Shown here in pieces: positions 8,638 through 28,153 of a DNA stretch of 28,798 nucleotides. The notes beneath the pieces were generated by a model that was not told the DNA's origin, did no database searches, and saw nothing but the letters and a program-made list of their open reading frames with translations. Made by a program: the position numbers and the translations under genes. This stretch comes from a virus (taxonomy: Duplodnaviria > Caudoviricetes). Where the stretch lies: positions 1 to 28,798 of IMG/VR virus record IMGVR_UViG_3300030372_003021. The stretch is one strand, 5' to 3'. Each line of letters begins with the position of its first letter. The stretch's first letter is position 1.

Positions 8638-9165
8638 ATGGCTAAAGCAAAGGATAAAAAGAACGAGATAAGAATCGAGGTTCGTAATATTCAAGATGTT
8701 CAACGTAGGTTGAAAAGACTTGGTAAGACGGCTAGAGAGTCTCGTACAGCCATAAATAAAGCGTTGAGACCTGCTGCTAATATGTTAGCTAGAGGTATTC
8801 AAAAAGCCTATCAAGATGAGTTTAAATACGAGACAAGAGTAGGTGATAAAGTTTTTAAAAGAAAAAGAAAAGCAGGTAGAACACCAACTTGGAAAACGAT
8901 TGGTATAATTACTGCTAGAAAATCAAGACAACCAGGCTTATTTGTTGGTCCTATAAAACGTAAAACTACTCCTATAACAGTGAAAGGAAAGGATAGTTAC
9001 AATTTAGCTGCGATGCAAATTAAAGGTAATAGCATACCACAAGCCCCTAGACCAAATGTCTTTGAGGCTACAGCTACTAAAATGGAAGAAAAAATATATT
9101 TACAAGCTGAAAGCGATTTAGATAAGTTGGTAGAAAAAATGATTAGACAAGCAGGTTTAAGATAA
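8638..9165 (+). CDS. HK97 gp10-like neck/tail completion protein
   Basis: Basic protein with KALRPAA and APRPN.F motifs; synteny. Confidence 0.65.
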   Translation: MAKAKDKKNEIRIEVRNIQDVQRRLKRLGKTARESRTAINKALRPAANMLARGIQKAYQDEFKYETRVGDKVFKRKRKAGRTPTWKTIGIITARKSRQPGLFVGPIKRKTTPITVKGKDSYNLAAMQIKGNSIPQAPRPNVFEATATKMEEKIYLQAESDLDKLVEKMIRQAGLR

Positions 9166-9168
9166 GAT

Positions 9169-9579
9169 ATGTTTGCAGTAATAGGACAAAAAATAGTAAC
9201 AAGATTAGAATCCAGAACAGCTTTTATCGCAGCTAATGGTCAAAACAAAGTTTTTCCTGTGATAATACCACAAGGTGTATCTTACCCTTGCTCTACGTTT
9301 GAAATAACTAATGTATCGAACTTTTTATCTAAAGGTAGTTCTCTTAACTCGTGTGATGTATCAATTCGCATCGCTTGTTTTGCAGACGCATATCTAACAA
9401 CATATTCACAAGCCAAGGCCGCTGTAGAAGCCTTAGACTTGTACGAGGTGACTTATACTGAAGATAGTGTAAGCTACACAGCGAAATTCAGATTTCTTGA
9501 TTTAGACGATGACTATTTCAAGACTCCTGAGAAATTCTACAAAAACGTAAATTTTAACTGTCTAATAATTAAAAATTAA
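9169..9579 (+). CDS. Tail terminator protein
   Basis: VFPVIIPQG..YP motif, size, position before tail tube. Confidence 0.7.
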   Translation: MFAVIGQKIVTRLESRTAFIAANGQNKVFPVIIPQGVSYPCSTFEITNVSNFLSKGSSLNSCDVSIRIACFADAYLTTYSQAKAAVEALDLYEVTYTEDSVSYTAKFRFLDLDDDYFKTPEKFYKNVNFNCLIIKN

Positions 9580-9585
9580 AATAAA

Positions 9586-9987
9586 ATGGCAATTCAAAAC
9601 GCAACAGACGTAGTTTTAAAAATAACTACAGCCGATGGTTTAGAAGCAGTAGCTCACGCTACATCAGCATCACTATCTGTAAATATGGATCTTCGTGATT
9701 CTACAACAAAATCTTCAGCTGGGTGGCAAGAAAACTTAGGTGGTCTTAAATCTTATGAATTAAGTGGAGACGCTTTTGTTGATATAGCTTCACCAACAGG
9801 TGCAGACATAGAATCATTGTTTACAGTTTATGAAGCAAGAACAGCAATAACTTGTACTTTTGGTTTAACAGGAATGTTATACACAGGTACAGCACTTATC
9901 ACTTCAATCTCAATAGACGCAGGTGTAGAAGAAAACGCAACTTATTCAATATCTTTAACTGGAACAGGAGCTTTAGTACAATCTTAA
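9586..9987 (+). CDS. Major tail tube protein (TP901-1-like, minimal)
   Basis: TSASLS...D.T.K.S.GW.E.L.GLKS and G.A.ITS.S..A..E..ATYS.SL.GTG motifs. Confidence 0.9.
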   Translation: MAIQNATDVVLKITTADGLEAVAHATSASLSVNMDLRDSTTKSSAGWQENLGGLKSYELSGDAFVDIASPTGADIESLFTVYEARTAITCTFGLTGMLYTGTALITSISIDAGVEENATYSISLTGTGALVQS

Positions 9988-10011
9988 TATTAACTTTTAA
10001 ATCCAAAAATT

Positions 10012-11721
10012 ATGGCAATTCAAAACGCTTCGGATTTATTGGTTTATGCTAAGACGACTGACCCTGCTAAACAAAAGACTAGGATTAGAGTATTGACTAC
10101 TGACCCTATGACACTAGCTGATGGTGAGACTACAGGTCGTCTTAATGTTAGTAATGCTACAGATGATGGAGGCGTTGTACGAGATAATGTTACAACAGCA
10201 GCAGCATCTAATACAGGTACATCTGTAATGGCTGAACTTGTTACTTTGTTAACTAACGCTACAATGGATTATGATGATATTAGTGGCTCAAATCAAACAG
10301 ATGGTAATTACATTTACAGAGATTTTGAAAATGGTGCTGTTGGATTAGTACCAACTTTACAAATTACAGATGGTACAGTAAGTCCTATCGGAACACTTAA
10401 TGAGGATGCTATTATAATTGAAATAGTTACCCCTGGCTCAAGTGCAATATTTGACCCTGTAGCTTTTAGTACATCAGCTTCGTTTAGCACTAATATGGAT
10501 TTAAGAGATGTAACCAACAAAGATTCAAACGGATGGTCTGAGTCTTTGGGTGGTTTAAAATCTTTTGAGGTCTCTACTGATATATTACAATCAATAAATC
10601 CCGATGTACCTTTAGATGGTACTGATTTCTTCGATAAACTTAAAAATAGAAGTTTAGTCGATTTAAGTTTCTCTGATAGAATTAGAAACATTATTCGCAC
10701 TAACCTTACTCAAAGTGGGGTTGATGGGTTTTTGTTAGGTGGTTTAACACAAACTAACTTACAAACTGATCCTTTTAGTGGAAGTACAGCTAGTAAATTA
10801 GTTACTGGGGCATCTACTACTAATAAATATCTTGGTTATACTATAGATGCTACTAGAGTAGAAAACAAAAAAGTTAATTGGTCGTTTTATGTTAAAGGTA
10901 GTGGTAGTACAACTCAAGCTAGTTTCGCTTTAAGTAATTCTAGTATAGTAGGAGCTTCTACAGTAACAAAGATAGAGGGTCAAGGTACTATTGCCTTTGT
11001 AGCAACTAGTTATTATAAAATAACAGGATTAAGCACATCAGCTTGGACTAGAATATCTTTTCAAACAGATACAATAAATTTATCAGGTAGTTCAACTTTT
11101 TCTTTTTACATCTATCCAGGATTATATTCAGCTCAAGATTCAGATGAAATTTTTACTTCATCTTGGCAAATTGAATTATCACCTGAAGCAACTAATTATC
11201 AAGACCCTACCGATATTACTCATTGGCAAGGTAACGCACTTGTATCTAGTTTAAGTTTTGATGCAGGAGTTGAGGATAATTTAACTTGTTCGGCTACATT
11301 TACTGGAACTAGTAATGTTTATCCAAATGGACTTGGTCCTGAGTTGATTGCAGATACAAGTTTTGATGACCCTAGTTATTGGAGTGTTAGCCCTGGTACA
11401 GCAGGTACTAGTGTTGTAGAAGATGGTTATGGTAAAATTCTTTCAACAGGTGCAAATTCAGATATTAGTAAAGATTTAAACTTGTATGCAACACCAGGCG
11501 ATTATTTTTTATTAACATACACTATACATACAAGCACAGATGGTGAATTAGCTATACACGATGGTTGGGATAATTCAACTGAATTTGATTTAAAGATACC
11601 ATCAACAGTAGGAACACATAAAGTTTTATTAAAACCAGGCGACAATAGTTTAATAATTAAAAGAGCCGCAATTCCGACTACAATTTGGCTAAGTTCAATA
11701 TCACTAAAGAAAGTTTTATAA
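10012..11721 (+). CDS. Second tail tube paralogue with two inserted domains and a C-terminal domain
   Basis: aa 1-16, ~148-222 and ~403-439 align colinearly with the 133-aa tube protein. Confidence 0.85.
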   Translation: MAIQNASDLLVYAKTTDPAKQKTRIRVLTTDPMTLADGETTGRLNVSNATDDGGVVRDNVTTAAASNTGTSVMAELVTLLTNATMDYDDISGSNQTDGNYIYRDFENGAVGLVPTLQITDGTVSPIGTLNEDAIIIEIVTPGSSAIFDPVAFSTSASFSTNMDLRDVTNKDSNGWSESLGGLKSFEVSTDILQSINPDVPLDGTDFFDKLKNRSLVDLSFSDRIRNIIRTNLTQSGVDGFLLGGLTQTNLQTDPFSGSTASKLVTGASTTNKYLGYTIDATRVENKKVNWSFYVKGSGSTTQASFALSNSSIVGASTVTKIEGQGTIAFVATSYYKITGLSTSAWTRISFQTDTINLSGSSTFSFYIYPGLYSAQDSDEIFTSSWQIELSPEATNYQDPTDITHWQGNALVSSLSFDAGVEDNLTCSATFTGTSNVYPNGLGPELIADTSFDDPSYWSVSPGTAGTSVVEDGYGKILSTGANSDISKDLNLYATPGDYFLLTYTIHTSTDGELAIHDGWDNSTEFDLKIPSTVGTHKVLLKPGDNSLIIKRAAIPTTIWLSSISLKKVL

Positions 11722-11750
11722 ATCAATTTAAATTAAAAAGGTAACAAAAA

Positions 11751-12050
11751 ATGAAAAAGGTAGAAATAGGTGGTCAGAAACGACCAATTAGATTTAGTTA
11801 TTTAGCTTTAAAAGACATCTGTAACGATTGTAAGTTAAAGTTAAATGAAATGGACAAGTTAGGAACAGAGATAGACCACGTTGGTATTATCGCTTACTAT
11901 GGTCTAAAATATGGTGCTAAGAAGAACGGAGAAGAGTTTAAGTACAAAGTTCGAGATATTGAACAATGGATAGACAATGAAGATTTCGGTAAGATAAATG
12001 AAATATTTGAAGCGTTTCAATTAGACCAACCTCAGAAAAAGGGAAAGTAG
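11751..12050 (+). CDS. Tail assembly chaperone (lambda G-like)
   Basis: Between tube and tape measure; ends in slippery G-GGA-AAG-TAG. Confidence 0.85.
   Translation: MKKVEIGGQKRPIRFSYLALKDICNDCKLKLNEMDKLGTEIDHVGIIAYYGLKYGAKKNGEEFKYKVRDIEQWIDNEDFGKINEIFEAFQLDQPQKKGK
12041..12047 (+). other. -1 programmed ribosomal frameshift site GGGAAAG
   Basis: Same heptamer as lambda G/GT, correctly phased; -1 frame open to 12421. Confidence 0.9.
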
Positions 12051-12421
12051 AAGAGGGAGAGGAAATTATTGATGAAGAGACAGGTGAAGTAGATTGGGAT
12101 AAGTTAGAAGAAGTTGGATTGGGAATGTTGGGGTTAAGTGATGAAGAATTATATGATTTGACCCCACGTTCCTTAGACAACAAAATAAGAGGTTTTAGAA
12201 AGTACAATGAACAGCTTTCTCAAAACAGATGGGAACAGACTAGAATGATAGTACACAGTTGTATAGTGCCTCACTCAAAACATCGACTTAAACCTAAAGA
12301 ATTAATGCCTTTCCCTTGGGATAACAAAGTTAAAATTAAAAAAGATATTGCTAGTAAAGAGCAAATCGCTGAGGTTCTTAAAAGATACAAACTAATAGAA
12401 CCTAAAAAAATCAAAGTTTAA
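12041..12421 (+). CDS. Tail assembly chaperone T part, expressed as G-T fusion (11751-12421)
   Basis: -1 frame GKVEEGEE... is continuous with ORF 12119-12421 (LYDLTPR, WEQTR, PFPWD). Confidence 0.85.
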   Translation, partial: GKVEEGEEIIDEETGEVDWDKLEEVGLGMLGLSDEELYDLTPRSLDNKIRGFRKYNEQLSQNRWEQTRMIVHSCIVPHSKHRLKPKELMPFPWDNKVKIKKDIASKEQIAEVLKRYKLIEPKKIKV

Positions 12422-12422
12422 A

Positions 12423-14600
12423 ATGGGTGGAGTAAAAACTATATCGATAATTGTAGCTGCTAATATCAAAGGCTTAGAGGCAAGTCTTGGTAAAGCAAAT
12501 AAATCAATAGTGGGTTTTGCTTCTAACGCAGCTCGTATTGGTTCGACACTTACTTTTGGTGTTACAGCACCTTTAGTTGCTATGGGTAAATCAGCCTTCG
12601 ATACATTCTCTCAGTTTGAGAATAGTATGATGAAGGTAAACACAGTAACTGGTGCTACTGCCGAAGAGTTTAAAATGCTCACAGCCGAAGCTAAACGATT
12701 AGGTGCAACTACTCAATTTACAGCCTCTCAAGTAGCTGACTTACAATTAATTTTAGGTCGTAAAGGATTTGATCCTAAAGCTATACAAGGAATGACTAGC
12801 TCTATACTAGACCTTGCCTTAGCTACTGGAGAAGATTTATCTTTAGCATCTGAAGTTGTATCTAAATCTATAAATGCTTTTGGATTAGAAACAGAGCAAT
12901 CAGCAAGAGTAGCGAATACATTAGCTAGTGCAGCTGCAAATTCATCAATGCAACTTAGCACTTTTGCAACTGCTTTTGCAAACGCTGGTGCTTCTGCAAG
13001 TTCAGTAGGTGTAGATATAGAAGAATTATCTGCTATGATGGGTGTTTTGATGGATAATGGTATCAAAGCAAGTAAAGCAGGTACAGGTCTTAATGGTTTG
13101 TTTATTAGATTAAAAGAAAATGGTATTTCTTTATCAAGTACCTTAGACTTTTTATCACAAGGCGAATTAACATTAGAAAGAGCAACAGATCTTGTTGGTA
13201 GAAACTTTAGTAAGCAGTTATTAATATTAGCTAAGAATAGAGATGCAGTAAAAGATTTAACTACTGAATTTAAGACAAACACTACTAGGTTAAATGAAAT
13301 GGCAGATGCGATGAGTAAAACTACTGTTGCAAAAGTTAAAAAAATGCAATCGGCAATAGAGGGTTTAAACTTAGAATTAGGTGCTTTACTTTCTGATAGA
13401 ATTATGCCTCTTATAAAACTTTTAACTAATTTAGCAAATAAATTTAGTGGCTTAGATGATAAAACTCAAAACGTTATTGTAACTGTAAGTTCTGTTGCAG
13501 CAGCTATAGGTCCACTAGCTTTGATAATAGGTGGTTTAGGTGGAGCTTTAGTAGCAGGACTATCAGCGATGGGTGGTTTTATAGCAGCAGCAGCACCAGT
13601 AGTTCTTGTTGTTGGGGCAATAGTTGTTATAATAGATAAGTTAATTTTAGTCTTAGGTATTTTAGGTCAAGCTGTTATAGATAATGGTAAGGCATTAAAA
13701 GATAGATTTAAAAATTTAGCAAACTCTATAGGTAATTTTTTTATTAATATGTTTAATAAAACAGTTACTAAGTTAAGGGATATAGCTGCTAAGTTTGGTA
13801 TAACAATATTTGAAAATTTTAAACCTGCAGAAGAATTAACTATTATACCTGATAATGAATTAAGTAAATTTGCTAAGTTTTCAGATAGTTCTTCAAAATT
13901 TTTTAAGACATACAAAGACTTTAAGAGTAGTGTTGGTGAAGGAATAATGGGTGTGTTTGATTTTGGATTTGAAGGTTCAAGCGGAGGTGAAGCAACACCT
14001 ACACAAGAACCTAAAACACGATCCCTTCAAGAAGCTTACGATGCTATATTTGGCGAAAACGCTTTTGCAGCATATCAAGAAGATATTAGATTAAAACAAG
14101 AGCAACTAGCATCAGCTCAAAGATGGACTAATTCACTTAATAGTTTAGCTGTTAGTTTATCGGAAAACTTTGCTCAATCATTTGCAGATACTATTTTAAG
14201 TGGTCAAAACTTTTTACAAGGTCTAGGTCAAATATTTAAAGATTTAGCTAAACAAATTACTTCGATGATAATTAAAGCACTTGTCCTAAGTGCTATACTT
14301 TCTTTAACTGGACTTGGTGGTACAGCAGCAGCTCAGAAAAAGTTTGGACAAAATCAAGGATTTAAAGATATATTAGGTGGTATGTTCGGTGGAGGATTTG
14401 CTAGTGGTGGTCAACCACCTTTAGGTAAAATCAGTCTCGTTGGGGAACAAGGACCAGAATTATTTGTTCCAAACTCACAAAAAGGAACTATAATTCCTAA
14501 TGGAGGTTTTGGTGGTTCGACTACACCTGATGTAAGAATATCGGGTGATGATTTATTAATTGTATTTGATAGAGCTAACAGAAGAAAAGCTAGAAGGTAA
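12423..14600 (+). CDS. Tape measure protein (TP901 family core)
   Basis: AKRLGATTQFTASQVA, LDLALATG, GIKASKAGT core; C-terminal FASGG...VGEQGPELFVP. Confidence 0.95.
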   Translation: MGGVKTISIIVAANIKGLEASLGKANKSIVGFASNAARIGSTLTFGVTAPLVAMGKSAFDTFSQFENSMMKVNTVTGATAEEFKMLTAEAKRLGATTQFTASQVADLQLILGRKGFDPKAIQGMTSSILDLALATGEDLSLASEVVSKSINAFGLETEQSARVANTLASAAANSSMQLSTFATAFANAGASASSVGVDIEELSAMMGVLMDNGIKASKAGTGLNGLFIRLKENGISLSSTLDFLSQGELTLERATDLVGRNFSKQLLILAKNRDAVKDLTTEFKTNTTRLNEMADAMSKTTVAKVKKMQSAIEGLNLELGALLSDRIMPLIKLLTNLANKFSGLDDKTQNVIVTVSSVAAAIGPLALIIGGLGGALVAGLSAMGGFIAAAAPVVLVVGAIVVIIDKLILVLGILGQAVIDNGKALKDRFKNLANSIGNFFINMFNKTVTKLRDIAAKFGITIFENFKPAEELTIIPDNELSKFAKFSDSSSKFFKTYKDFKSSVGEGIMGVFDFGFEGSSGGEATPTQEPKTRSLQEAYDAIFGENAFAAYQEDIRLKQEQLASAQRWTNSLNSLAVSLSENFAQSFADTILSGQNFLQGLGQIFKDLAKQITSMIIKALVLSAILSLTGLGGTAAAQKKFGQNQGFKDILGGMFGGGFASGGQPPLGKISLVGEQGPELFVPNSQKGTIIPNGGFGGSTTPDVRISGDDLLIVFDRANRRKARR

Positions 14601-14603
14601 ATT

Positions 14604-17600
14604 ATGGCATACGGAAAGTACAGAGATTCTCAAATAAAAGGCGAGGCAGGTACAACTTGGTACGTTGAAATTTGGAAAAAAAGCTATTCAGGTAGTAGTA
14701 CCGATATAAATCTTCAAGGTGAGGGTTTTGAGGTTAAATGGACTGGCCAAGGTGGCACAAGAAATAGACAATTTTTAAATTCAGAATGTATTGTAAGTTT
14801 TTATGCTGAAAATAATGTTGATGAGGCATTTATATATGATGTATTTCAAAAGGGTGATAAAGAGTATTTTATTAGAATATATAAAAATAGTGTAAGTAAC
14901 GCTAACCTTTGGTGGTTTGGATGGGTGCAACCATCATTTGATACTTTATCTAACGAGCCTTTTCCTTATCCAGTTAAAATAATTGCTACCGATTCTATAG
15001 GTGTTTATAAAGAAAGAGAAGACGATACTTTATCAACATCTACTTGGAATAAAGCTTATAGGATAAATAATCATATAAACGATTTTGGTAGCACAATGTC
15101 TTTATTTGACCATTCATCTGCAAACGAATCTCCAATACCACAAAACCATAAGTGGTTTAAGACGGGAATAGATTGGTTTAGAGATGGTGAAACTTACGAA
15201 GCTAACGACCCTTTTTATTCTTACTATATTACAAATGCAGCATATAGAGGTGATGTTGAAAAAAAACCTTTAAAATACAAAAAGTACGATGTGCTAAAAG
15301 GTTCTTTACAAACATTTAATACTATAGGTTTTTTAAGTAATGGTAATTATTATTTTATTCAACCAAATAATAAAATAGCTACAAGTGGCTTAATAAAAAC
15401 ATACAATTATTTAGGCACAGACAATGAAGTAGCTTCAGGTGGTAATATAGCAGATGAAAATGTAAATCTTACTATAGACCAATCTGCTAATTATATTTTA
15501 GCAGGTTCAACAATTACTTTTGACCCAGTTTTAAAAAGTGTAACTTGTGATTTTATAAATGGTGAGTCTACATTTTTTGTTCCTGATGATGCAGATTTAA
15601 CAACTGGTTTTACAGCAGGTTTACTACAAGGAGACACTGATGAGCAAGGCTCAATGTCTATAAATTTCGCAGCAACTCATAAAGAAGTTTTTAACAGAAA
15701 TCAATTAAACTTTCCAAGTTCATCTTACGATTTAGTAAACGCAGGACACAAAACAACAGCTCAGTTGCAAATTAAAATCGGAACAGGAGCGGATACAAGA
15801 TATTTAAGACAAGGTGCAGGTATTTTAGAGTGGGGTACAGATACTACTGTACACACAATGACTTTAGTTAGAGGTAAAAGTGCTAATGGATCGGGCACTA
15901 TTTTAAATAATGCAGATAGTGATTATGTAGATATTAGTACAATAAGAAATATAGACGAAATAGGTGACAATTTATCATTATCAAGTGCAGAATTTCGACC
16001 TTGTAGAGTACAAAGAGTTGGGGATGCATACATAGCAGAAACTGCTATAAAATTTGCAGGTTCATTTCCTGTACCATTAGTTTCAGGAGAAGTAGTTATT
16101 ACTCTTACTGCTACAAATGAATATACTCCTTACTATTATCAATATCCAAGTAACCCATCTTGGGCAGTCAATTCTGGTGGTACAACTTATCAAAATCAAA
16201 CACCATCTACAGTTACTAGAACAACTAAATCAGGGTCTTTTTATGGTATCAATACTGCTAGTATTACAGTAGCAGGATATAATGCATTAGCTCTTGGAAA
16301 TCAAGTTGGGTTGACTTTTACTACTAATCAATCTAATAATGATGCTTTTGAAAATTTAGATTTAGGTGAAATTGAAGTAGGTCAAACTACTTCAGGTTTA
16401 GCAAATTCTCAAAATGCAATTTTTTCTGTTCAACACAATACAGGTACTGATGCTGACCCTGTGATGTTTACTTCAACACAAGGTTTTAGGGCAAATGATA
16501 CTGGTGATTATTTAAATATTTTACAACTATTAACAAGAGAATTTTTACAATTACAAACAGAACCTTTAGAAATACTACAAGCAGATGTATTTAGTTCAGA
16601 TATATCGCCTATTAAAAATTTAAAATATTCAATAAATAATGATGGTGTATTTAAGTACTATCAATTTTTAGGAGGTACATTTAAAGCTCAAAGTGAAACA
16701 ATGAGCGGTGAATGGTTTAAAATAAGTACAAGTGCTAGTGTTACAGTAGGTAGTCCTGATGGTATAAATGCAGGTAGAGCTATGTCACCTTCTTCGTTAG
16801 GTGTATTAAGTTCAGGTGAAAATATTAATAGTAAGATAATATTAAATCAAATAAACGAAAACAGTTTAGGTACAACAAACGCAGCGATACAATCAGGTAC
16901 AGCTACTACACAAATTACATTAGTAGATAATACTAGGGCTAAAATATATAGTGGTCAAAAAATACAAATCACTTATGCTGATGGTTCAAACTCTCTTACA
17001 TTAACAGCTTCTAGTGATGTTGCAACAAGCTCAAAACAAATACCTGTAACTTCATTTACTCCTGAATTAGATTATCCATTAGGCTGTATAGTTAGCCCTT
17101 TAGTTTACGACCTAACCAATGTAATTACAGGAGGCGGTGGAGGTAGCACGAGTCCAGGAGGATCAGATACACAGGTTCAGTTTAATGATGGAGGGTCTTT
17201 TGGTGGTACTGATTTAATGACTATCGGTACAGATAAAGTTACATTTACAGGTAATGTTGAAATACAAGGCTCAAATGAAAAAATAAAGTTAAATAGTGGT
17301 GGGGATATTATTTTTGATGATGATGTAAACGGAGGGTCAGGAAGTGGAGGTATATTGTACAGAGATTCAGGAGGGGGCTTAAAATTTGCTTTTGTAATTC
17401 ATCCAACTAATATAGTTACAATATGTAACAGAGCCTCAAATGGCGAAGTACAAATTAGAGCAAACACATCATCAGCAGGAGCAGCGGGTGAGTTAACTAT
17501 AGCGACATTTAAAGATACGTCTGTTGACTTTTTAAATGGAGCTGAACTAAGAGGAACGAACATAGGTAACATATTTGACACAGCAGCTTATTTAACGCCT

Positions 17601-17966
17601 ATTGATTTTAGCATTAGTAATAATACAGGTTTAGCACCATATACTAAAGATACTTCGGATGGAGCAACAGCAGCAATAAATTCTGCAACTTCATCAATGT
17701 TTGCCTCTTTTCAAATACCAATCGGTTATGAGGCTACTCACGTTCAAGTAAATGGAAATTCAAGTTCATCAACTTTCAATGTTTATGTTTGTAATATATC
17801 TGATGCTACAGTTTCAGCCTTAACAAGTTCTCCAAGTGTTGGAACAAATCAAGCATTATCATCAGCTCAATCAGGTTTACTTGGTAGATATTTAAGTATA
17901 GAATTTACTCCAGGAGCTACTAATAGAACAATCTATGGAGCTAAAATAACATTATCAAGATTATAA
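14604..17966 (+). CDS. Large tail tip protein (hub plus fibre/receptor-binding region)
   Basis: Directly after TMP; S/T/G-rich beta-like C-half; fibre motif PGGSDTQVQFNDGGSFGG. Confidence 0.75.
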   Translation: MAYGKYRDSQIKGEAGTTWYVEIWKKSYSGSSTDINLQGEGFEVKWTGQGGTRNRQFLNSECIVSFYAENNVDEAFIYDVFQKGDKEYFIRIYKNSVSNANLWWFGWVQPSFDTLSNEPFPYPVKIIATDSIGVYKEREDDTLSTSTWNKAYRINNHINDFGSTMSLFDHSSANESPIPQNHKWFKTGIDWFRDGETYEANDPFYSYYITNAAYRGDVEKKPLKYKKYDVLKGSLQTFNTIGFLSNGNYYFIQPNNKIATSGLIKTYNYLGTDNEVASGGNIADENVNLTIDQSANYILAGSTITFDPVLKSVTCDFINGESTFFVPDDADLTTGFTAGLLQGDTDEQGSMSINFAATHKEVFNRNQLNFPSSSYDLVNAGHKTTAQLQIKIGTGADTRYLRQGAGILEWGTDTTVHTMTLVRGKSANGSGTILNNADSDYVDISTIRNIDEIGDNLSLSSAEFRPCRVQRVGDAYIAETAIKFAGSFPVPLVSGEVVITLTATNEYTPYYYQYPSNPSWAVNSGGTTYQNQTPSTVTRTTKSGSFYGINTASITVAGYNALALGNQVGLTFTTNQSNNDAFENLDLGEIEVGQTTSGLANSQNAIFSVQHNTGTDADPVMFTSTQGFRANDTGDYLNILQLLTREFLQLQTEPLEILQADVFSSDISPIKNLKYSINNDGVFKYYQFLGGTFKAQSETMSGEWFKISTSASVTVGSPDGINAGRAMSPSSLGVLSSGENINSKIILNQINENSLGTTNAAIQSGTATTQITLVDNTRAKIYSGQKIQITYADGSNSLTLTASSDVATSSKQIPVTSFTPELDYPLGCIVSPLVYDLTNVITGGGGGSTSPGGSDTQVQFNDGGSFGGTDLMTIGTDKVTFTGNVEIQGSNEKIKLNSGGDIIFDDDVNGGSGSGGILYRDSGGGLKFAFVIHPTNIVTICNRASNGEVQIRANTSSAGAAGELTIATFKDTSVDFLNGAELRGTNIGNIFDTAAYLTPIDFSISNNTGLAPYTKDTSDGATAAINSATSSMFASFQIPIGYEATHVQVNGNSSSSTFNVYVCNISDATVSALTSSPSVGTNQALSSAQSGLLGRYLSIEFTPGATNRTIYGAKITLSRL

Positions 17967-18034
17967 ATAGGGAGATTGATTGTAGTGTATCTTTTTGCTA
18001 CCTTTTCGATAGACTACTTTCACTCCCTTTATTT
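17965..18034 (+). ncRNA. Extended intergenic hairpin between tail and lysis genes
   Basis: GGGAG/CTCCC, TGA/TCA and GTAGTGTATC/GATAGACTAC stems around a pyrimidine-rich loop. Confidence 0.55.
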
Positions 18035-18057
18035 AAAACAAAATAATAAAACTAAAA

Positions 18058-18285
18058 ATGCAAGTTACAATAGGAATAATAGAGGTAATAATATCAGTTA
18101 TTGTATTGTTATCTACTGGTGTTGGAGTATGGACTAATCTTCAAACTAAGGTAACTAAACTTTCTTCTAGGGTATATCACTTAGAGCAATCTGATAACGA
18201 ATTAAAGATTATCTTAGCAGATATATCGACTAAATTACACAAGATAGAATTATTGTTAGCTGCTAATCAAATTAAAGAGAAGTGA
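18058..18285 (+). CDS. Single-TM coiled-coil protein, holin/lysis accessory candidate
   Basis: Hydrophobic aa ~3-25 then heptad pattern; upstream of endolysin. Confidence 0.6.
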   Translation: MQVTIGIIEVIISVIVLLSTGVGVWTNLQTKVTKLSSRVYHLEQSDNELKIILADISTKLHKIELLLAANQIKEK

Positions 18286-18515
18286 CTAAAGAAATACAAG
18301 ACCAAACTTTTGTTATTAGTGTAAGAAACTTTATTGCTATAGGTGCGGCTAGTTTATTACTTGTTGGAGAGTATTTAGTTTTACAAAACGATATTAATGA
18401 AGCTAAGAGTTTACCTAAAACCGAAGTAAGTAAAATAGAATTTGACTTTACTAATAAGAAGTTGCAATATCAAATTGATGCTTTAAAAGAAGAATTAGAA
18501 TCACTAAAAAAGTAG
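18282..18515 (+). CDS. Single-TM coiled-coil protein in lysis cassette
   Basis: FIAIGAASLLLVGEYLVL segment; GTGA overlap with upstream gene. Confidence 0.6.
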   Translation: MTKEIQDQTFVISVRNFIAIGAASLLLVGEYLVLQNDINEAKSLPKTEVSKIEFDFTNKKLQYQIDALKEELESLKK

Positions 18516-18520
18516 TATAA

Positions 18521-18988
18521 ATGAGACTAAGTAAAAATTTTGTGTTATCGGAAATTACTAGAAGTAACACAGCCAAAAGACTTGGAATAGATAATGAGCC
18601 AACAAAAAAAGACTTGGAAAATATCCAAAGACTTATTACAAATATTTTACAGCCTCTTCGCAACCATCTTGGTCCTATCAGGATTAGTAGTGGTTATCGC
18701 AACAAGGAACTCAATCGTGCTATTGGTGGAAGCAATAAGTCACAGCACAGCAAAGGTGAGGCACTTGATATACAATTTTGGAAAGATGGTCAAATGTGTA
18801 ATAAAAAAGTTTACGACTGGATTATAGATAATGCAGTTGAGTTTGACCAAATGATAAATGAATTTGACTTTTCTTGGATTCACATATCTCTTAAAAAATC
18901 TAAAAACAGACGAGAAGTATTAGAGGCTTACAAAGATAAGGATGGAGACACACAATACAGATACGCACCTGATATAATTACATTATGA
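18521..18988 (+). CDS. Endolysin, peptidase M15 family
   Basis: LSKNF.LSE, SSGYR, SQH..GEA.D, WIHIS Zn-peptidase motifs. Confidence 0.92.
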   Translation: MRLSKNFVLSEITRSNTAKRLGIDNEPTKKDLENIQRLITNILQPLRNHLGPIRISSGYRNKELNRAIGGSNKSQHSKGEALDIQFWKDGQMCNKKVYDWIIDNAVEFDQMINEFDFSWIHISLKKSKNRREVLEAYKDKDGDTQYRYAPDIITL

Positions 18989-19377
18989 TAAAAAATATTC
19001 TTAAAAGTTTAGTAGGACAAGCTTCTACTATTATAGACGATGTAGTAACAACTGACGAAGAACGTTTAAAACTTAAAAATGAGTTTGAGAAAGTTATACA
19101 AGACCACGAAAAGGAAATGTTTGCTCTTGAGGTTCAAGACAGAAGTAGTGCTAGAACAATGTTTATGGACGATAGCTTTATACAAAAGATATTGGCTATC
19201 ATTTTTACTTGTGCTTATTTTCTTATATCTTACTTTATGTTCAAGTGTTTTATAACAAATACTTTAGAGCTTTCAGATTACGAAATAGGTTTTATTAGCA
19301 CAGTATTTGGTGCTATGTCAAGCAAAGTAAATACCATTATTGATTTCTTCTTTGGTGGTTCATCAAAATCTAAATAG
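18985..19377 (+). CDS. Holin-like membrane protein (resembles GTA 3TM-holin type)
   Basis: IIDDVVTTDEER, DRSSAR, two C-terminal hydrophobic segments, FFFGGS end; ATGA overlap with endolysin. Confidence 0.7.
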   Translation: MIKNILKSLVGQASTIIDDVVTTDEERLKLKNEFEKVIQDHEKEMFALEVQDRSSARTMFMDDSFIQKILAIIFTCAYFLISYFMFKCFITNTLELSDYEIGFISTVFGAMSSKVNTIIDFFFGGSSKSK

Positions 19378-19673
19378 TGCCTTGGCTTCCTAAAGGCAGA
19401 GATAGACGCTCTAAGGCTGAAAAAAATAGGTCTTGGGGTGGAGATACTTCGTTCTATAGAAAATACGCTTGGAGGAAGCTAAGAAAGGTTGTATTAGACA
19501 AGAACCCTTTGTGCGTTTATTGTTTAAATAATGATATGGTTAAACCTGCTGATGTAGTCGACCACATTGTACCTATCAAACAAGGTGGAGCTGAGTTAGA
19601 CGAATCTAATTTACAAGGATTGTGTCACAGTTGCCACAATAAAAAGACATATTATGAAAACAGACAAAAATAG
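19377..19673 (+). CDS. HNH endonuclease (HK97 gp74-like packaging cofactor)
   Basis: FY...WRKLR, PLCVYC, VDHIVP, NLQGLCHSCHNKK. Confidence 0.92.
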   Translation: MPWLPKGRDRRSKAEKNRSWGGDTSFYRKYAWRKLRKVVLDKNPLCVYCLNNDMVKPADVVDHIVPIKQGGAELDESNLQGLCHSCHNKKTYYENRQK

Positions 19674-20049
19674 ATATAGGAGTAAATATGAAGAAGATGT
19701 TTGTTCTAAATTGCGTAAAAGTAAAATCCCTTTTGAGTATGAAACTATTAATCTTTACTACGAGATTTCCGAACAGCGAAAATATATACCTGATATTATA
19801 CTCCCAAACGGAATTGTTATTGAATTAAAGGGAAGGTTTACCTCTAAGGATCGGAAGAAGATGTTACTGGTAATAGAGCAACACCCTGAATTAGATATAC
19901 GAATGGTCTTTATGAGACCTAACAATAAGTTAAATAAGAATAGTCGCACAACTTATGCCCAATGGTGCGATAAGAATAATATAAAGTGGGCTAACAAATA
20001 TATACCGACAGAATGGATAAGAGAGACAAGAAAACACCCGAAGAGATAG
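19654..20049 (+). CDS. T7 endonuclease I-like junction resolvase
   Basis: YRSKYE, FEYE, YIPDIILPNG, IELKGRF...DRKK, QHPELDIRMVF, TTYAQWC. Confidence 0.9.
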   Translation: MKTDKNRYRSKYEEDVCSKLRKSKIPFEYETINLYYEISEQRKYIPDIILPNGIVIELKGRFTSKDRKKMLLVIEQHPELDIRMVFMRPNNKLNKNSRTTYAQWCDKNNIKWANKYIPTEWIRETRKHPKR

Positions 20050-20114
20050 CTGAAGAAATCTTTGGAAATTGGATAGTGGATTCTACAGAAGAAGAGCAAG
20101 GAGAGGACGGCTAG
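20013..20114 (+). CDS. Small acidic protein, 33 aa (MDKRDKKTPEEIAEEIFGNWIVDSTEEEQGEDG)
   Basis: Fills the gap to the convergence point; TAG 20112-20114. Confidence 0.5.
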   Translation: MDKRDKKTPEEIAEEIFGNWIVDSTEEEQGEDG

Positions 20115-20129
20115 TCCTCTTTTTCTTTT
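20098..20129. terminator. Terminator at the convergence of the two arms, possibly bidirectional
   Basis: AGAGGAC-GGCTA-GTCCTCT stem followed by TTTTCTTTTC; purine tract on the other side. Confidence 0.65.
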
Positions 20130-20404: not shown

Positions 20405-20415
20405 AATCTCTTTGG

Positions 20416-20607
20416 TTAAAACTTTCCACTTACAGTTCCGTTTGGCTTCTTTATAATACCTCCAAATCCATTATTCTCCTTTACACGATCCATATGCTCA
20501 TCGCAACAAATCGCTTCGGGACTAACTACCTTATCATCAACTACCTTAATTGAATAACTTGATAGCTCTTTAACTTCTTCGCACTTATTACATTTAAACT
20601 TTGCCAT
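20416..20607 (-). CDS. Small zinc-ribbon protein (FmdB-like), start revised to MAKFKC
   Basis: CNKC...CC...M; the longer start at 20664 would run through a terminator and promoter. Confidence 0.65.
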   Translation of the reverse strand: MAKFKCNKCEEVKELSSYSIKVVDDKVVSPEAICCDEHMDRVKENNGFGGIIKKPNGTVSGKF

Positions 20608-20615
20608 AACACTCG

Positions 20616-20646
20616 CTAATTTACAAAAAAAAAGGACATCTACAAG
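20616..20646 (-). promoter_or_regulatory. Bacteroidetes-type promoter for 20607/20404 genes
   Basis: CTTG (20646-20643), 19-nt spacer, TAAATTAG (20623-20616) on - strand. Confidence 0.5.
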
Positions 20647-20657
20647 TAGACATCCTC
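20625..20657 (-). terminator. Strong intrinsic terminator
   Basis: GGATGTCTA-CTTG-TAGATGTCC followed by ~9 T on - strand. Confidence 0.85.
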
Positions 20658-20708
20658 TTTCCATTTTTAACCAAAAAACTTACTAATTATGCAAAAAAAT
20701 CGTAAGAA
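20625..20708 (-). ncRNA. Candidate antisense small RNA (~85 nt)
   Basis: Upstream TATATTTG (20720-20713), 5' hairpin CTTAC/GTAAG, single-stranded TTTTTTGGTTAAAAA, terminator. Confidence 0.55.
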
Positions 20709-20711
20709 TGG

Positions 20712-21143
20712 TCAAATATACAAAACTTTTCCTTTATCATATTCTAAAAAAGTAACATACTTATAAACAAAACTTTTCCTACCAAAGTCAGTAGATTCGG
20801 GCATTGTCCTCCAAAACCAGTTACTTATTTTAGTTTTGTTTAAATTAAATACTAATACAGAATCACAATCAAAGAAATTAATGTACAATCCTTGAGCTGC
20901 TTTTTCATTTTTAGTCTTTCTTAATATCCTTTCGTACTTGTGCATCTCTAGTATTAATCCTTCAGGATATTTACTCTTAGCTGTATCTAAAGTAAAATTT
21001 CTTTGCTTCATCTCGCAATAGAACTTCCTTGCATCCCACTCGTAGGTAAAATCCCAAAAATCATACTTTCCCCCTGAAGGGACACAATTAATTTTATACT
21101 TACTAGCGAATCGGTCTAACAAGTTTAGTTCTTTTTCAGTCAC
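20712..21143 (-). CDS. PD-(D/E)xK nuclease-like protein
   Basis: YDFWDF...FYCEMKQR catalytic pattern. Confidence 0.65.
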   Translation of the reverse strand: MTEKELNLLDRFASKYKINCVPSGGKYDFWDFTYEWDARKFYCEMKQRNFTLDTAKSKYPEGLILEMHKYERILRKTKNEKAAQGLYINFFDCDSVLVFNLNKTKISNWFWRTMPESTDFGRKSFVYKYVTFLEYDKGKVLYI

Positions 21144-21471
21144 TTTTATTTAATTTAGTTAATATATCTAACTCTTGCTTGAGTTCTATAACAGCATTAG
21201 CCATCTCCATTTCATTGGCATTGGCTAAAAACTTTTCTCTTTTATAAGCCATCATTTGTGTGTGTACCCAAGTAAATGCTAACGCACTTTCCTCGAACAC
21301 CTTTAATCTAGGCTTTAACTTCTCAGCTTGAGGGTGTCCCTCGAATTGCTTATACATCTTTAACACCTCGCTTTGATGTGCTATAAACTTATCGAGACTA
21401 TTCATCTCGTCTAAATTCGGGTCGGCTTCTCGCAATAGATTAATTGCTTTCATTGTAATTTGATCAGGCAT
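21136..21471 (-). CDS. Hypothetical helical protein
   Basis: Tightly packed ORF in operon. Confidence 0.75.
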   Translation of the reverse strand: MPDQITMKAINLLREADPNLDEMNSLDKFIAHQSEVLKMYKQFEGHPQAEKLKPRLKVFEESALAFTWVHTQMMAYKREKFLANANEMEMANAVIELKQELDILTKLNKSD

Positions 21472-21474
21472 AAT

Positions 21475-22134
21475 TTAAAGTATAGTTAATTGGTTAGATT
21501 GATTTGATTTATGTATGTTTAATGCTGTTTCTAATATTGTTTTACCTGCTTCGTAATCTACTAGGTTTCTTGCTATTTTTAAAATTAATTTTTTTCCTTT
21601 ATATTTTGTAAAATCGTAATCGTGAAAAGTAGACCAAGTTTTTAAAGATTCGGTATTTCCATTTTTAGCATCACCAAAGTTTTTAACTCTTCCATTTAAA
21701 TTATTAGGTAATCTAAAATTAGTCCAGTACAAATGTCTATCTCGTTTTTTTGGATTAAACATAGGTTCATAGTAAGGTATTACATTTTCAATTACATATT
21801 TATTCTTACAATGATGTTCTAAAAATATTATTTCCTCATATAGTTTCATATCAGGATAAACTGGTTTTTTACCATTAGCACCAAAACCCCAATATCTAGC
21901 CCTACTATGTGTAGGGCAAGGTGGACTACTCCATATAAAATCAAATTCTTGATAATGATCTAATAAATATTGATGTGCATCAGCTACAATTACTTTATCA
22001 TTTGGGAATCTCTCTTTATATAATTTAGCTAATTCATTATCTAATTCAACTGCTGTAACTTCAATATCTTCTTTTACTTCGTTCCACTTGTATCGGTTTC
22101 CACCAAGACAAGCATATAAATTTAATATCTTCAT
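21475..22134 (-). CDS. Orphan C5-cytosine DNA methyltransferase (short)
   Basis: Motif I LNLYACLGG, motif IV SSPPC, motif VI IENV, R.R, C-terminal ARNLV. Confidence 0.85.
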   Translation of the reverse strand: MKILNLYACLGGNRYKWNEVKEDIEVTAVELDNELAKLYKERFPNDKVIVADAHQYLLDHYQEFDFIWSSPPCPTHSRARYWGFGANGKKPVYPDMKLYEEIIFLEHHCKNKYVIENVIPYYEPMFNPKKRDRHLYWTNFRLPNNLNGRVKNFGDAKNGNTESLKTWSTFHDYDFTKYKGKKLILKIARNLVDYEAGKTILETALNIHKSNQSNQLTIL

Positions 22135-23070: not shown

Positions 23071-23697
23071 CTAGTTCTTCATAGCATTTAATTGACCTCC
23101 TAAGTAATCAGGATCGGGCTTATCTTTTTTATTCCTTGAAATCCACCCTGAAGCTGCCATCTTCCAATCCTTCATAGGGTTCTTACCTACGTTCCATCCT
23201 TGGGACTCGTAGAAGTAAAAGAACCTTTCAGCTTCCCTTTTGTTGCTACCTTTTTCTAGGAAGTATGTAATAACTTCTTGGGTGGACTCAGGAATATTTC
23301 TTCGACTATTAACAGGTTCTGTTAAACTAATCTTATTGTTAGGAAAGTCTAAACTAATATCGTTTTCATTCAATATTTTTAATATAGACTTATGTACTCT
23401 GTTATTAGGATTAAGTTTGTTACCATATTGAAACTCTATAAAGCCAGTAAGAAACCATCTGCCATTACCTAGAACGCAAATTCTCGGTTTGTTTAAGTTT
23501 ACATTATCTAAGAATGATTGTACATTAATCTCGTTACCTATCAATAATTCAAACATTCTTTTATTCGGTTTGAATATACCTGCGTGGTCACAATTATCGC
23601 AAACGTAAATCCAAAATAATTTATCTGCTAAGGATAGGTCTAAATACCAATCCTCATTCCATTTCATTGTTTCTGTAAATCTCTTTGCCATTTTCAT
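23071..23697 (-). CDS. Replication initiator / replisome organiser
   Basis: N-terminal AKRFTET.KW...CDHAG...FIEFQYG; C-terminal FF.FYES.GW.VGKNPMKDWK.A...W; upstream of helicase. Confidence 0.75.
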   Translation of the reverse strand: MKMAKRFTETMKWNEDWYLDLSLADKLFWIYVCDNCDHAGIFKPNKRMFELLIGNEINVQSFLDNVNLNKPRICVLGNGRWFLTGFIEFQYGNKLNPNNRVHKSILKILNENDISLDFPNNKISLTEPVNSRRNIPESTQEVITYFLEKGSNKREAERFFYFYESQGWNVGKNPMKDWKMAASGWISRNKKDKPDPDYLGGQLNAMKN

Positions 23698-23714
23698 TGG
23701 TTTTTTCTTTGGTT

Positions 23715-23774
23715 AAAAAAAAAGTAGAGGAGAGTAAAACCGACGACCAAATCAAAATCTAACTCCCCTCGTAC
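23715..23774 (-). terminator. Terminator/attenuator hairpin just upstream of initiator gene
   Basis: GAGGGGAGT...ACTCTCCTC stem followed by T9, 17 nt before the ATG. Confidence 0.65.
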
Positions 23775-24329: not shown

Positions 24330-24566
24330 TTAAAATTGCTCATAATATTGGTCTACGACCTTTAAAAAAAAATCTCTTGCTTGAGGTGTTTTATTCATTT
24401 CATCAACACATAATCCTACAAGTGGACTAACTTCCTCGTGGTAATTAATGTGAAATCTAATTTGAAACTCATCTTCGTTATCTGTTGATACTACAGATAC
24501 TATTATACTCTCATCTGTTTCCTCTTGGATCGTCTCGTGACAAACGTCTATTCTATCTATCTTCAT
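24330..24566 (-). CDS. Hypothetical acidic protein
   Basis: Overlaps upstream gene in operon. Confidence 0.7.
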   Translation of the reverse strand: MKIDRIDVCHETIQEETDESIIVSVVSTDNEDEFQIRFHINYHEEVSPLVGLCVDEMNKTPQARDFFLKVVDQYYEQF

Positions 24567-24972
24567 TGTATAGTTTTTCTAATTTTTCTATTTGTTCTAT
24601 TTGTGATAAATCAGATGTAATCACTTGTTTTATCTTAGACTTTATTGTACTGTGCCTATTATAAACTAATTTTTTATTTATCATAGCAAATAACTGGTTA
24701 AACATAAAGTCTTGTTTCATTAATATTCTAAACATTTTGACTGAGTGCATCACAGTAGCGTGGTCACAATTAGTAAGTGTACCAATTTCTGCTAAAGGTA
24801 ACTTTTTATCTTGATAAAGCAAGTACCTTAATGAGTGCCTAGCGTAAACTAAATTTCTATCTCTACATTTACTTAACATATCATCTTTAGTAACATTCCA
24901 ATATAAACAAATATCAGGAAGTGCTTTCTCTAACTTTCTTATTCCATAATCAGTAGCTACTCTTCTTCTCAT
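24553..24972 (-). CDS. Stand-alone DnaA C-terminal (domain IV) HTH protein
   Basis: SKCRDRNLVYARH...LAEIG....DHATVMHSVK. Confidence 0.85.
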   Translation of the reverse strand: MRRRVATDYGIRKLEKALPDICLYWNVTKDDMLSKCRDRNLVYARHSLRYLLYQDKKLPLAEIGTLTNCDHATVMHSVKMFRILMKQDFMFNQLFAMINKKLVYNRHSTIKSKIKQVITSDLSQIEQIEKLEKLYNEDR

Positions 24973-25712
24973 AATTCTTCGTGTATTACTTTAGTTTTTG
25001 GTTGGTTTAACATCTCCAGTAAGCTAACGTACTCTTGCCTACCTTGGTCAATAAAATTCTCAGTACATCTAAATATACCTACTTGATAAGGTTCTTGTGT
25101 CTCTACTACAATGAACACAAACTCTTTTGCTCCGAAGCCGTCTAAATAGAACGCAGCTTGTCTGTGGTAATTGTACCTGTAAGCACTCTTTCTAAATTCA
25201 CTTACTGGCTTAGAGGTAGTCTTTATATCTACTAACATATCACCTCCATCAACAACTATATCGGCTTTTCCTTTACACTTTCGCATCGTGTTAAAGTCTA
25301 TCCAACACTTCGGTACTTCCTTCTCAGAGTTATCTAAAATAGATTTAACCTCATCGATCCTGGACAACTTGTCCCGAAGATTCAAAGCTAAATTATACTG
25401 ATCCATTCCGATTACAATACCTTCTCTTTCCTCCATCTTAATCTTCCAAGCTTTATTTAATTTACTCGCCATCGACTTAGTTGGTTCAGGTCTATCTTCA
25501 GGATTAATTACAACAAACTTACGTTGAAACTCTTTAGGTTCTAATATAAGTGTGTGAACTAAATTTCCAAACCTTAAAGCAGGTGAGTCGATTGTACCTC
25601 CACGCTTCATCATCTCGTAGTACTCCCACCCTTTTTTTAAGTAACCTAATTGAGAGTTAGTAGTGTACTCCCAGTCTCCGTAGTATTCTTGGTCAGTCTT
25701 AAATGTTTTCAT
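24969..25712 (-). CDS. RecE/exonuclease VIII-like PD-(D/E)xK nuclease
   Basis: FGNLVHTLILEP, KGKAD, VDIKTT, YHRQAAFY, FIVVE..EPY. Confidence 0.88.
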   Translation of the reverse strand: MKTFKTDQEYYGDWEYTTNSQLGYLKKGWEYYEMMKRGGTIDSPALRFGNLVHTLILEPKEFQRKFVVINPEDRPEPTKSMASKLNKAWKIKMEEREGIVIGMDQYNLALNLRDKLSRIDEVKSILDNSEKEVPKCWIDFNTMRKCKGKADIVVDGGDMLVDIKTTSKPVSEFRKSAYRYNYHRQAAFYLDGFGAKEFVFIVVETQEPYQVGIFRCTENFIDQGRQEYVSLLEMLNQPKTKVIHEEL

Positions 25713-27062: not shown

Positions 27063-27094
27063 TTTAAATTAATTTTAGTTTTTTGGTTCGAAGG

Positions 27095-27125
27095 CAAAGA
27101 TATAAACATTTTTTTAATTTTCAAA
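27095..27125 (-). promoter_or_regulatory. Consensus Bacteroidetes promoter driving the leftward arm
   Basis: TTTG (27125-27122), 19-nt spacer, TATCTTTG (27102-27095). Confidence 0.85.
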
Positions 27126-27342
27126 CCTACCCCACAAAATAAAAGCGTATTACTAAATGGACTAAAAATTACATAGGAGGGGAGGGGTTGAGGGTAGGAG
27201 ATAGGCAAAATCGGTGAAATTGAAAAAAATCGATAGGGTAGGAGTTTTCGACTGACTTTATGACATTTGCAAATTTTGAAGCATTTTTTTAGAAATTATT
27301 TTTAAATTAAATTGCGCGTATTATTAACCAAAACACAAAAAA

Positions 27343-27807
27343 ATGAAACCAACAAAACACATTAAACAACTAGCCGAAAAGCTGACAAACGAAGATTTAA
27401 AAGAACATTTAAATTTTTATTCTCAACACATCGCACACGCTTTTGAGAAAGAAAACACAGAAGAAGCAAAAGAGAAATATTTTAATTCTACTTATAAAGA
27501 AAGATTAAACCAATTAAACGACATTAAAAAGGCTTTATATAATGGCTCTTTTTATATGCGTGTGGATTCTGTGTCTAAGTCGGGAATGAGTCGAAAAATA
27601 CAATTTGCTTATGTAAAGAATAATAAAATAGTAAGTATTAGAGACAAGAAAATTTTAAATTTAGCAGGATGCGACAAGAACGGTAAAATTTCGGGGTGTG
27701 GAATGGATATGCTTTTCCACTCTCAATACACACTATTTATAAACTTGCATAAGAATTATAAAAAAGCGAATTATCAAAAAAAACTTAAACAATATTTAAA
27801 TTACTAA
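27343..27807 (+). CDS. Conserved phage early-region protein of unknown function
   Basis: SVSKSGMSR.I...GCGMDM.FH motif pair. Confidence 0.8.
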   Translation: MKPTKHIKQLAEKLTNEDLKEHLNFYSQHIAHAFEKENTEEAKEKYFNSTYKERLNQLNDIKKALYNGSFYMRVDSVSKSGMSRKIQFAYVKNNKIVSIRDKKILNLAGCDKNGKISGCGMDMLFHSQYTLFINLHKNYKKANYQKKLKQYLNY

Positions 27808-27811: not shown

Positions 27812-28153
27812 ATGATCTACGAAGCAAAACAAACCACAATTAAAAAACGCTTTTTGTTTGGGAGTAAACAAGAAGTTAAGAAATACACTTTTGACAATTA
27901 CAATGATTGTTTAATCTTTTGTTTAGATGAACAAATACCCTTTTTTAATTGTCTTATAGGCGAGGGAATGACAACCAAAAGAAAAACCTTTAAAAATTAC
28001 TATTCATTAGAGGAATTTAAAAAGGTGGCTTTAAAGAATCCTTTATTCTTTTTAGGTGTACACGATGCGAGCAAAGCAAATATAAATACATACTATTTTT
28101 ACCTTGTTAAATCTCATTTAAATAAGTTATTAAAACTTAATACTATAAAATGA
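27812..28153 (+). CDS. Hypothetical protein
   Basis: 4 nt after upstream stop. Confidence 0.7.
   Translation: MIYEAKQTTIKKRFLFGSKQEVKKYTFDNYNDCLIFCLDEQIPFFNCLIGEGMTTKRKTFKNYYSLEEFKKVALKNPLFFLGVHDASKANINTYYFYLVKSHLNKLLKLNTIK

Follow-up and report, generated by a model that had tools for sequence, protein, structure and literature searches.

A candidate small RNA of a tailed phage with predicted pairing to the leaders of its putative replication initiator and other early genes

It is unexplained how replication is controlled in small Bacteroidota phages that lack a recognisable repressor, and a short leftward stretch in what appears to be one such phage raises the question of whether an RNA could do so. 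The window, by which we mean the whole stretch of DNA that was analysed, is a 28.8-kb tailed-phage record (IMGVR_UViG_3300030372_003021; 28,798 nt) with a GC content of 33%. Two relatives, L013 and L030, span the junction of its two ends, so that little of the phage genome seems to be missing. The related contigs are IMG/VR records, and the labelled RNA runs that contain the region are marine. From the TAnnTTTG boxes, the A-rich leaders without a Shine-Dalgarno sequence and a methylase that is shared with Flavobacterium phages we infer a Bacteroidota host. No repressor, antirepressor or integrase family was recognised among the 42 window proteins or 60 of the 99 listed proteins of relatives, and integrase, HTH_3 and resolvase were each found in 0 of 5 relatives that are 38-83% complete; the preliminary description of this DNA had likewise seen no recognisable protein repressor. 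In a search for prophages or hosts, a single-protein scan of GTDB genomes gave no initiator relatives; of the 53 loci from an alignment scan, L081 alone was close. This locus is a family member on a 25.9-kb phage-like contig binned in a Porticoccaceae MAG, probably wrongly, to judge from its TAnnTTTG box.

Our results favor, with a probability of roughly 70%, the reading that the stretch is the gene for an ~85-nt trans-acting RNA, which would pair with the leaders of the predicted initiator and of other early genes and block their translation while late genes are spared. This reading best explains a conserved box, fold and terminator, a lineage-specific complementarity to early leaders and the lack of the own-lineage seed word in late leaders. 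The promoter element, the hairpin with its anti-start, the seed, the terminator and the four leader matches of the preliminary description were all found in their places (Table 1). The box overlaps the last codons (Tyr-Ile) and the TGA stop of the upstream gene, and from its position at -12 to -5 relative to the start in Bacteroidota promoters (PMC9723704) we predicted the +1 at about 20709-20708. The 85-nt RNA that would result has, in the predicted fold, a 5' hairpin whose loop contains CAU, a 16-nt open seed and the terminator; with the seed open this fold scored z=-2.9, and 4 of 200 shuffles were equally good. Opening costs are 0.7 kcal/mol for the seed and 4.1 kcal/mol for the 5' hairpin, whose stability compared with shuffles is modest (z<-1 in 9 of 16 lineages; -0.4 in the lineage of the window). 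When upstream bases were added, as in a read-through mRNA, TTTGACCA was able to pair with the seed; a seed-hiding hairpin of this kind was rejected, as the TTTGACCA arm is missing in most relatives.

Table 1. Coordinates of the putative small RNA gene, its surroundings and its predicted targets in the window.
Feature	Position	Strand	Basis or remark
-7 promoter box TAnnTTTG (TATATTTG), Bacteroidota primary sigma	20720-20713	-	sequence; predicted
Predicted ~85-nt small RNA (hairpin, open seed, terminator)	20709-20625	-	fold prediction
5' hairpin	20706-20679	-	anti-start CAT (CAU in RNA, in loop) at 20691-20689
Open U-rich seed, complementary to early leaders	20680-20663	-	fold and co-variation
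Intrinsic terminator	20662-20625	-	16-pair stem, 9 U
Probable second promoter box TAAATTAG after terminator	20616-20623	-	would serve genes 20607 and 20404
Upstream gene, likely PD-(D/E)XK nuclease	20712-21143	-	ESM Atlas lead PF24579 at 0.96
Terminase-portal-protease-capsid-tail-lysis block	597-20049	+	late block
Leftward early block (exonuclease, SSB, predicted initiator, helicase, DNA methylase)	27053-20111	-	
Right-end genes (n=3), first gene	27343-27807	+	
Early leftward promoter (TTTG, 19 nt, TATCTTTG)	27095-27125	-	sequence
Main target: leader and start of predicted replication-initiator gene 23697/23691-23071	23691-23719	-	upstream of helicase
Target: leader of gene 27053-26775	27077-27088	-	directly after early leftward promoter; 12/12 match
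Target: leader and start of 111-aa gene 21471-21136	21461-21497	-	second-best window; co-varies, p=5e-5
Candidate target (weak): leader of gene 20404-20111	20408-20421	-	match real, two G-U
Candidate target (weak): leader of DnaA-domain-IV-like gene 24972-24553	24993-25003	-	AACCAAAAACT present
Candidate target (weak here): leader of first right-end gene 27343-27807	27324-27333	+	10-nt match

In 41 of the 45 distinct flanks downstream, the terminator U-run is followed immediately by another promoter-like box (TAnnTTTG in 27, TAnnTTAG/TTGC in 14), which suggests that the swappable genes downstream of the element probably have their own transcript. Assembled contigs of seven public RNA runs (X1-X7) cover the region patchily, bridge the ends of the element and may include DNA, and transcript starts are not visible in such contigs.

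Which leaders could this RNA reach? Among 5740 windows over both strands of the genome the best three distinct sites were the leaders of genes 23697/23691, 21471 and 27053, with the initiator leader first, where the match at 23719-23705 comprises 15 pairs including one G-U and the duplex reaches -26.1 kcal/mol. The initiator function of this gene is predicted from its position and from its C-terminal part, which matches an annotated replication initiation protein at 51%. Net pairing energies were -13.8 kcal/mol for the initiator, -16.5 for gene 21471, -11.5 for gene 27053 and about -9 for the weak targets. The promoter ahead of gene 27053, the first leftward gene, was placed by the consensus of PMC7366714, and the leaders of the orthologues of this gene co-vary with the RNA (p=5e-5). 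Of the targets named in the preliminary description the initiator and this first leftward gene stood, while the 20404 leader was borderline (family co-variation p=0.06, or 0.054 with lineages merged) and the 27343 leader was weak, its duplex of -12.1 kcal/mol being no better than those of late genes in the window; the positional counterpart of 27343 in relatives, the family OG33, does co-vary (p=3e-4). The target 21471 and the candidate 24972, the overlap of the box with the upstream stop and the likeness to FopS/GibS discussed below had not been mentioned. The 24972 family showed no co-variation (p=0.22). Its member in the window (24553-24972) is a stand-alone DnaA domain IV-like protein (PF08299 above cut-off), is conserved in the family (OG9, 46 copies) and could bind origin boxes of host or phage. 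The early bias of the AACCAAA motif held: of 18 early or non-structural genes, 5 have it no more than 40 nt from the start, with 24972 as the fifth, whereas all 24 late genes lack it there (Fisher p=0.010). Shuffled leaders gave a mean of 0.41, and none of 3000 shuffles reached 4.

We found 80 IMG/VR loci whose upstream gene has 55-99% protein identity to that of the window, and the element lies behind this gene in all 80; together with the window these 81 loci hold 51 distinct element sequences. None of the cultured phages carry the upstream gene. The box reads TATATTTGA in 80 of the 81 loci; the exception, TATCTTTGA, replaces Ile by Leu and still fits TAnnTTTG. At other gene ends, by contrast, TGA is the stop in only 71 of 497 cases and TAT and ATT make up 63% and 40% of their codons. 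The element is also kept in four phages without a match to the upstream gene (L159-L162), and in the three that were inspected (L159, L161 and L162) a -33 TTG and TAnnTTTG precede it. By this comparison the upstream gene is not required for the element, and the invariance of the box against codon and stop usage, together with its persistence without the gene, points to a cassette rather than just a 3' tail. Hairpin, seed and terminator are kept with differing letters in 50 distinct folded elements, with stem sequences specific to the lineage, and CAT is present in 48 of the 51 distinct elements. Some RNAs (L161:3092-3196 and L162:9114-9228; lineages 3 and 4) have two seed copies or a second CAU in the seed, and such a second CAU pairs with the initiator AUG where present.

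These data bear directly on the possibility that no separate RNA is made and that the early operon simply ends in this stretch as its 3' UTR, which would act in cis by pairing with leaders of its own mRNA. In favor of this, the element closes the leftward early operon and shares its strand with the leaders of the initiator, 27053 and 21471; read-through into it is to be expected, and one FopS member is 3'-derived (PMC11697453). Yet a box that is held constant against codon and stop usage and persists without the upstream ORF is hard to reconcile with this, the mean unpaired probability of the seed falls from 0.78 (49 elements) to 0.53 in read-through folds, and the co-varying leaders include that of OG33, a gene on the opposite strand (p=3e-4). 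We therefore consider a purely cis-acting 3' UTR improbable.

In a model search of the kind proposed in the preliminary description, the family's own model gave a single match in the window. In 121 Bacteroidota genomes this model, which had no base pairs, gave only weak matches (24 genomes, at most 20.7 bits compared with at least 32 for members), and the eight of these that were inspected were mostly the terminator alone. Among 28 distant initiator loci a like element, with box, anti-AUG, U-rich seed and terminator, was found only in L178 (5697-5780), L181 (2003-2097), L185 (~4195-4265) and L094 (~100-200). Their seeds match the early leaders of the respective phage; in L178 and L181 the element sits after a holin-like gene, and the one in L178 carries GUGUUUUCAUGG, which is closer to FopS. 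This type of element seems to be widespread, and the family studied here is a clear case of co-variation.

An argument for trans-acting pairing comes from comparing lineages. Genes in the 81 loci were called by script and clustered, the RNAs were grouped into 16 lineages, and each RNA was paired with start regions of its own and of other lineages; three mis-called initiator starts were dropped, and the initiator was assessed in 14 lineages. Averaged over these 14 lineages, the RNA pairs with the initiator of its own lineage at -22.2 kcal/mol and with those of other lineages at -14.7 kcal/mol (p=5e-5). The own initiator ranked first in 10 of 14 lineages, and in 7 of 8 when related lineages were merged; by whole-body energy the clade 4 lineage ranks 10th. 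The residual for the initiator was -6.89 kcal/mol, as compared to -0.84 to +0.53 for controls from the same loci (the terminator, the reversed RNA and three upstream coding segments), for which 2 of 20 tests fell under p=0.05 (0.038 and 0.010). Six of 30 gene families passed Bonferroni correction, and all six are early, whereas the late families tested were null. These are the initiator, the first leftward gene, the 21471 family, the exonuclease family and two families absent from the window, OG33, which is early in the rightward, opposite-strand transcript, and OG30, a methylase with a co-varying leader.

The same pattern was visible in the seed words themselves. Early leaders held AACCTAAA in 16 of 160 cases in the own lineage and 5 of 660 in others, AACCAAAC in 11 of 80 and 11 of 740, and AACCAAAA in 41 of 378 and 18 of 442, and none of the three occurred in a late leader of the own lineage; the enrichment failed for AACCAAAT (0 of 66) and ACCAAAAC (p=0.1). 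By eye, the seed-leader pairs are UUUUGGUU with AACCAAA(A/G), UUUAGGUU with AACCUAAA, UUUUAGUUUCUAG with CUAGAAACUAAAA and GUUUGGUU with AACCAAAC, and double changes occur at seed columns -1, -3 and -4. Altogether the seed 8-mer of the own lineage was found in 68 of 816 early or unassigned leaders, in none of 445 late leaders and once in antisense. On the initiator tree, seed and leader class, labelled after viewing the data, agree in 41 of the 47 rows. The remaining rows are five conflicts and L078, which lacks a seed class; the duplex of the L078 RNA extends into the coding region of the initiator and contains four G-U pairs. For eleven loci found later (8 distinct RNAs), mostly from lineages already seen, and likewise for L161 and L162, pairing with the own initiator was in every case stronger than with the median training leader. 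The complementarity also reaches the AUG and the early codons, with a mean z of about -1.1 to -1.7 in the target families versus about 0 in late ones. In effect, nature has performed a compensatory-mutation experiment, in which each of several seed types has its counterpart in the initiator leader of its own lineage; cognate and non-cognate combinations that reporter tests could use are thereby already at hand.

Leader matches could in principle also stem from AT-rich composition alone, the element then being a plain terminator preceded by a U-rich tail, or a short gene on the plus strand; the genome has only 33% GC, and the reverse complement of the element in the window resembles a leader plus ATG with a 25-codon ORF. 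Composition controls and the non-cognate comparisons, however, show no such effect, and the plus-strand mini-ORF was rejected since its length ranges between 2 and 47 codons in the relatives and its frame is not constant. The tracking of seed words and the own- versus other-lineage pairing largely refute this explanation, which we regard as extremely improbable.

Could the complementarity instead reflect a DNA word that both sites share? A bias towards G-U would tell this apart from RNA pairing, and it was null in two forms (0.33 vs 0.34 and 0.23 vs 0.25) and a trend only in a third (14:3 vs 174:89). Nor did a distance-based partial Mantel test single out the seed (r=0.11 for RNA against leader, 0.22 for the terminator control). 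The shared word could be bound, as DNA or RNA, by a phage protein such as the initiator or the DnaA-domain-IV-like protein; the copy in the element, which is inverted, would then be an extra site or decoy, with no RNA-RNA pairing at all. Besides the mostly null G-U tests, this would fit with the word following promoters (27088), with AACCT repeats before the initiator in one lineage and with the presence of a helix-turn-helix candidate. It accounts poorly for the single orientation of the leader copies (68 sense versus 1 antisense, a skew that leader composition would partly explain), for the location of the only inverted copy, which is flanked by a promoter box and a terminator and lies open in the fold, and for complementarity that covers the AUG and early codons, also in L078. 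We infer RNA pairing rather than a shared word from the anatomy of the element, this orientation and the extension over the start codon, and find the protein-site explanation very improbable.

How would the RNA act? The predicted RNA resembles FopS/GibS of B. thetaiotaomicron (Rfam RF04319), short RNAs with a primary-sigma promoter, a CAU anti-AUG, a U-rich ...GGUUAA seed and an intrinsic terminator that pair at translation starts of SD-less mRNAs (PMC11697453; promoter and consensus context in PMC7366714), as is predicted here. FopS-10 blocks susC translation by pairing next to the start codon (PMC11697453). In the phage, RNA made from its own host-sigma promoter would nucleate through the open U-rich seed on an A-rich leader ~5-30 nt before the AUG, the weak 5' hairpin (4.1 kcal/mol) would then unzip, and the anti-AUG part would extend across the start codon and block ribosome loading, as for FopS. 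Since one host sigma would serve both the RNA and the early mRNAs, a stable RNA would accumulate with time and genome copy number and thereby act as a delayed, dose-dependent brake on the initiator and on early-gene output. Late genes would escape, possibly driven by the phage's own sigma factor. An ECF-type sigma-factor gene (2618-3118, + strand; TIGR02937 above cut-off) lies between terminase and portal and is possibly the late-gene sigma.

The likeness to FopS has limits. The element carries the features of the R1' consensus (PMC11697453), the anti-AUG and ...GGUUAA before the terminator, and its sequence holds a TAnnTTTG box of the primary-sigma type. The FopS model aligned over the full length of the element, but at 16.5 bits (E=3.9) where the gathering cut-off is 56 bits; it gave no match at E<=5 in eight other loci and none over the cut-off in five genomes. 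The 5' part of FopS is single-stranded, whereas a 5' hairpin of modest stability is predicted across the phage family; FopS exists in 12-15 chromosomal copies and the phage element in one, the family's own model giving a single match in the window; and the phage seed diverges between lineages, unlike that of FopS. FopS is associated with binding of RbpB and with repression of host SusC mRNAs, and the predicted targets here are the phage's own early genes. One FopS copy was noted in a Bacteroides phage, and the portion of that paper available to us describes no phage target for it (PMC11697453).

The resemblance of the seed to R1' raises the question of whether the RNA is real and chiefly silences host mRNAs with A-rich leaders, a FopS-like takeover with the phage matches as a side effect, since an anti-AUG with a U-rich sequence could pair with many SD-less leaders. 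Selection towards the host would not, however, lead each lineage to mirror its seed changes in its own early leaders while its late leaders show no such match, and we hold host silencing as the chief role to be very improbable. The RNA is probably a phage self-regulatory sRNA, and anti-start RNAs of the FopS type would then act not only in the metabolism of gut Bacteroides but also in phages that regulate themselves.

What would such self-regulation serve? A role in lytic timing or copy number has, in our judgment, somewhat less than an even chance, and a role in dormancy or superinfection immunity is unlikely; as no integrase was found, a brake on lytic replication is likelier than lysogeny. 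The multi-target antisense RNA of the preliminary description gained support from conservation and lineage-specific complementarity. Plasmid antisense RNAs of the R1 CopA type act as a copy-number brake on rep translation and their sequence defines specificity groups. They are cis-encoded and fully complementary to one target, whereas the phage RNA would be encoded 3 kb away from the initiator, pair imperfectly and have several targets.

Phage RNAs that pair at phage translation starts include c4 of P1/P7, sar of P22 and OOP of lambda (PMC12197685; OOP also bioRxiv 2024.10.31.621285), and the sequence specificity of c4 underlies the heteroimmunity of P1 and P7 (PMC12197685). Here too the sequence-specific pairing differs between related phages, in that the predicted RNAs pair on average better with their own than with another lineage. 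In contrast, c4 and sar each act on a single antirepressor, in phages that have protein repressors, and OOP is cis-encoded, while the phage element matches several scattered leaders, the initiator above all, and no repressor or antirepressor was recognised among the proteins covered (42 in the window, 60 of the 99 listed for relatives; HTH_3 in 0 of 5 incomplete relatives). The Rfam comparison suggested in the preliminary description returned no family at the gathering threshold in the window, c4 included, and c4 was not among the six weak matches in 20500-20850. Judged from sequence, the element would work like FopS/GibS and have a role like that of c4, yet is a member of neither, given the 16.5 versus 56 bits for FopS and the lack of an Rfam match for c4. 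The lambda PreS and VP882 VpdS RNAs are trans-acting phage sRNAs of 50-90 nt tied to replication (bioRxiv 2024.10.31.621285, PMC12197685); they are Hfq-dependent and promote replication, partly via host mRNAs, whereas the RNA described here is predicted to repress its own initiator. The literature searched, judged by title and beginning of abstract and with few subscription journals among it, describes no such RNA in a Bacteroidota phage, and the words 'Bacteroid' and 'Flavobacter' are absent from a 2025 review of phage sRNAs.

A bolder version would make this one sRNA the immunity system of these repressor-less, integrase-less marine phages. It would silence the initiator together with the first genes on each of the two early transcripts, hold the phage in a damped carrier state and block incoming phages with the same seed; seed-leader pairs would diverge into RNA-defined immunity groups, a general logic of Bacteroidota phages enabled by SD-less leaders. 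The divergence of seeds and leaders is as expected from immunity groups, and also as expected from drift with compensation, and we regard this version as doubtful. RNA-defined superinfection groups in marine phages are directly testable.

Further features of the window were observed along the way. A hairpin at 20098-20124, between the converging late and early blocks, scores as a terminator on both strands. A further TATATTTG box (28077-28084, - strand) lies antisense inside gene 27812-28153 and could be an antisense promoter or arise by chance. In the late block (+ strand), the prohead protease (4714-6243) has extra N-terminal DUF3721 and DUF5824 domains, and the adjacent tail-tube-family genes 9586-9987 and 10012-11721 begin with identical first 17 bases; the latter encodes 569 aa, with its tail-tube match at residues 133-190. 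The slot between the helicase and gene 21471 (21475-22134, - strand) varies by relative and holds DNA methylases, Mom-like or PAPS-reductase-like genes.
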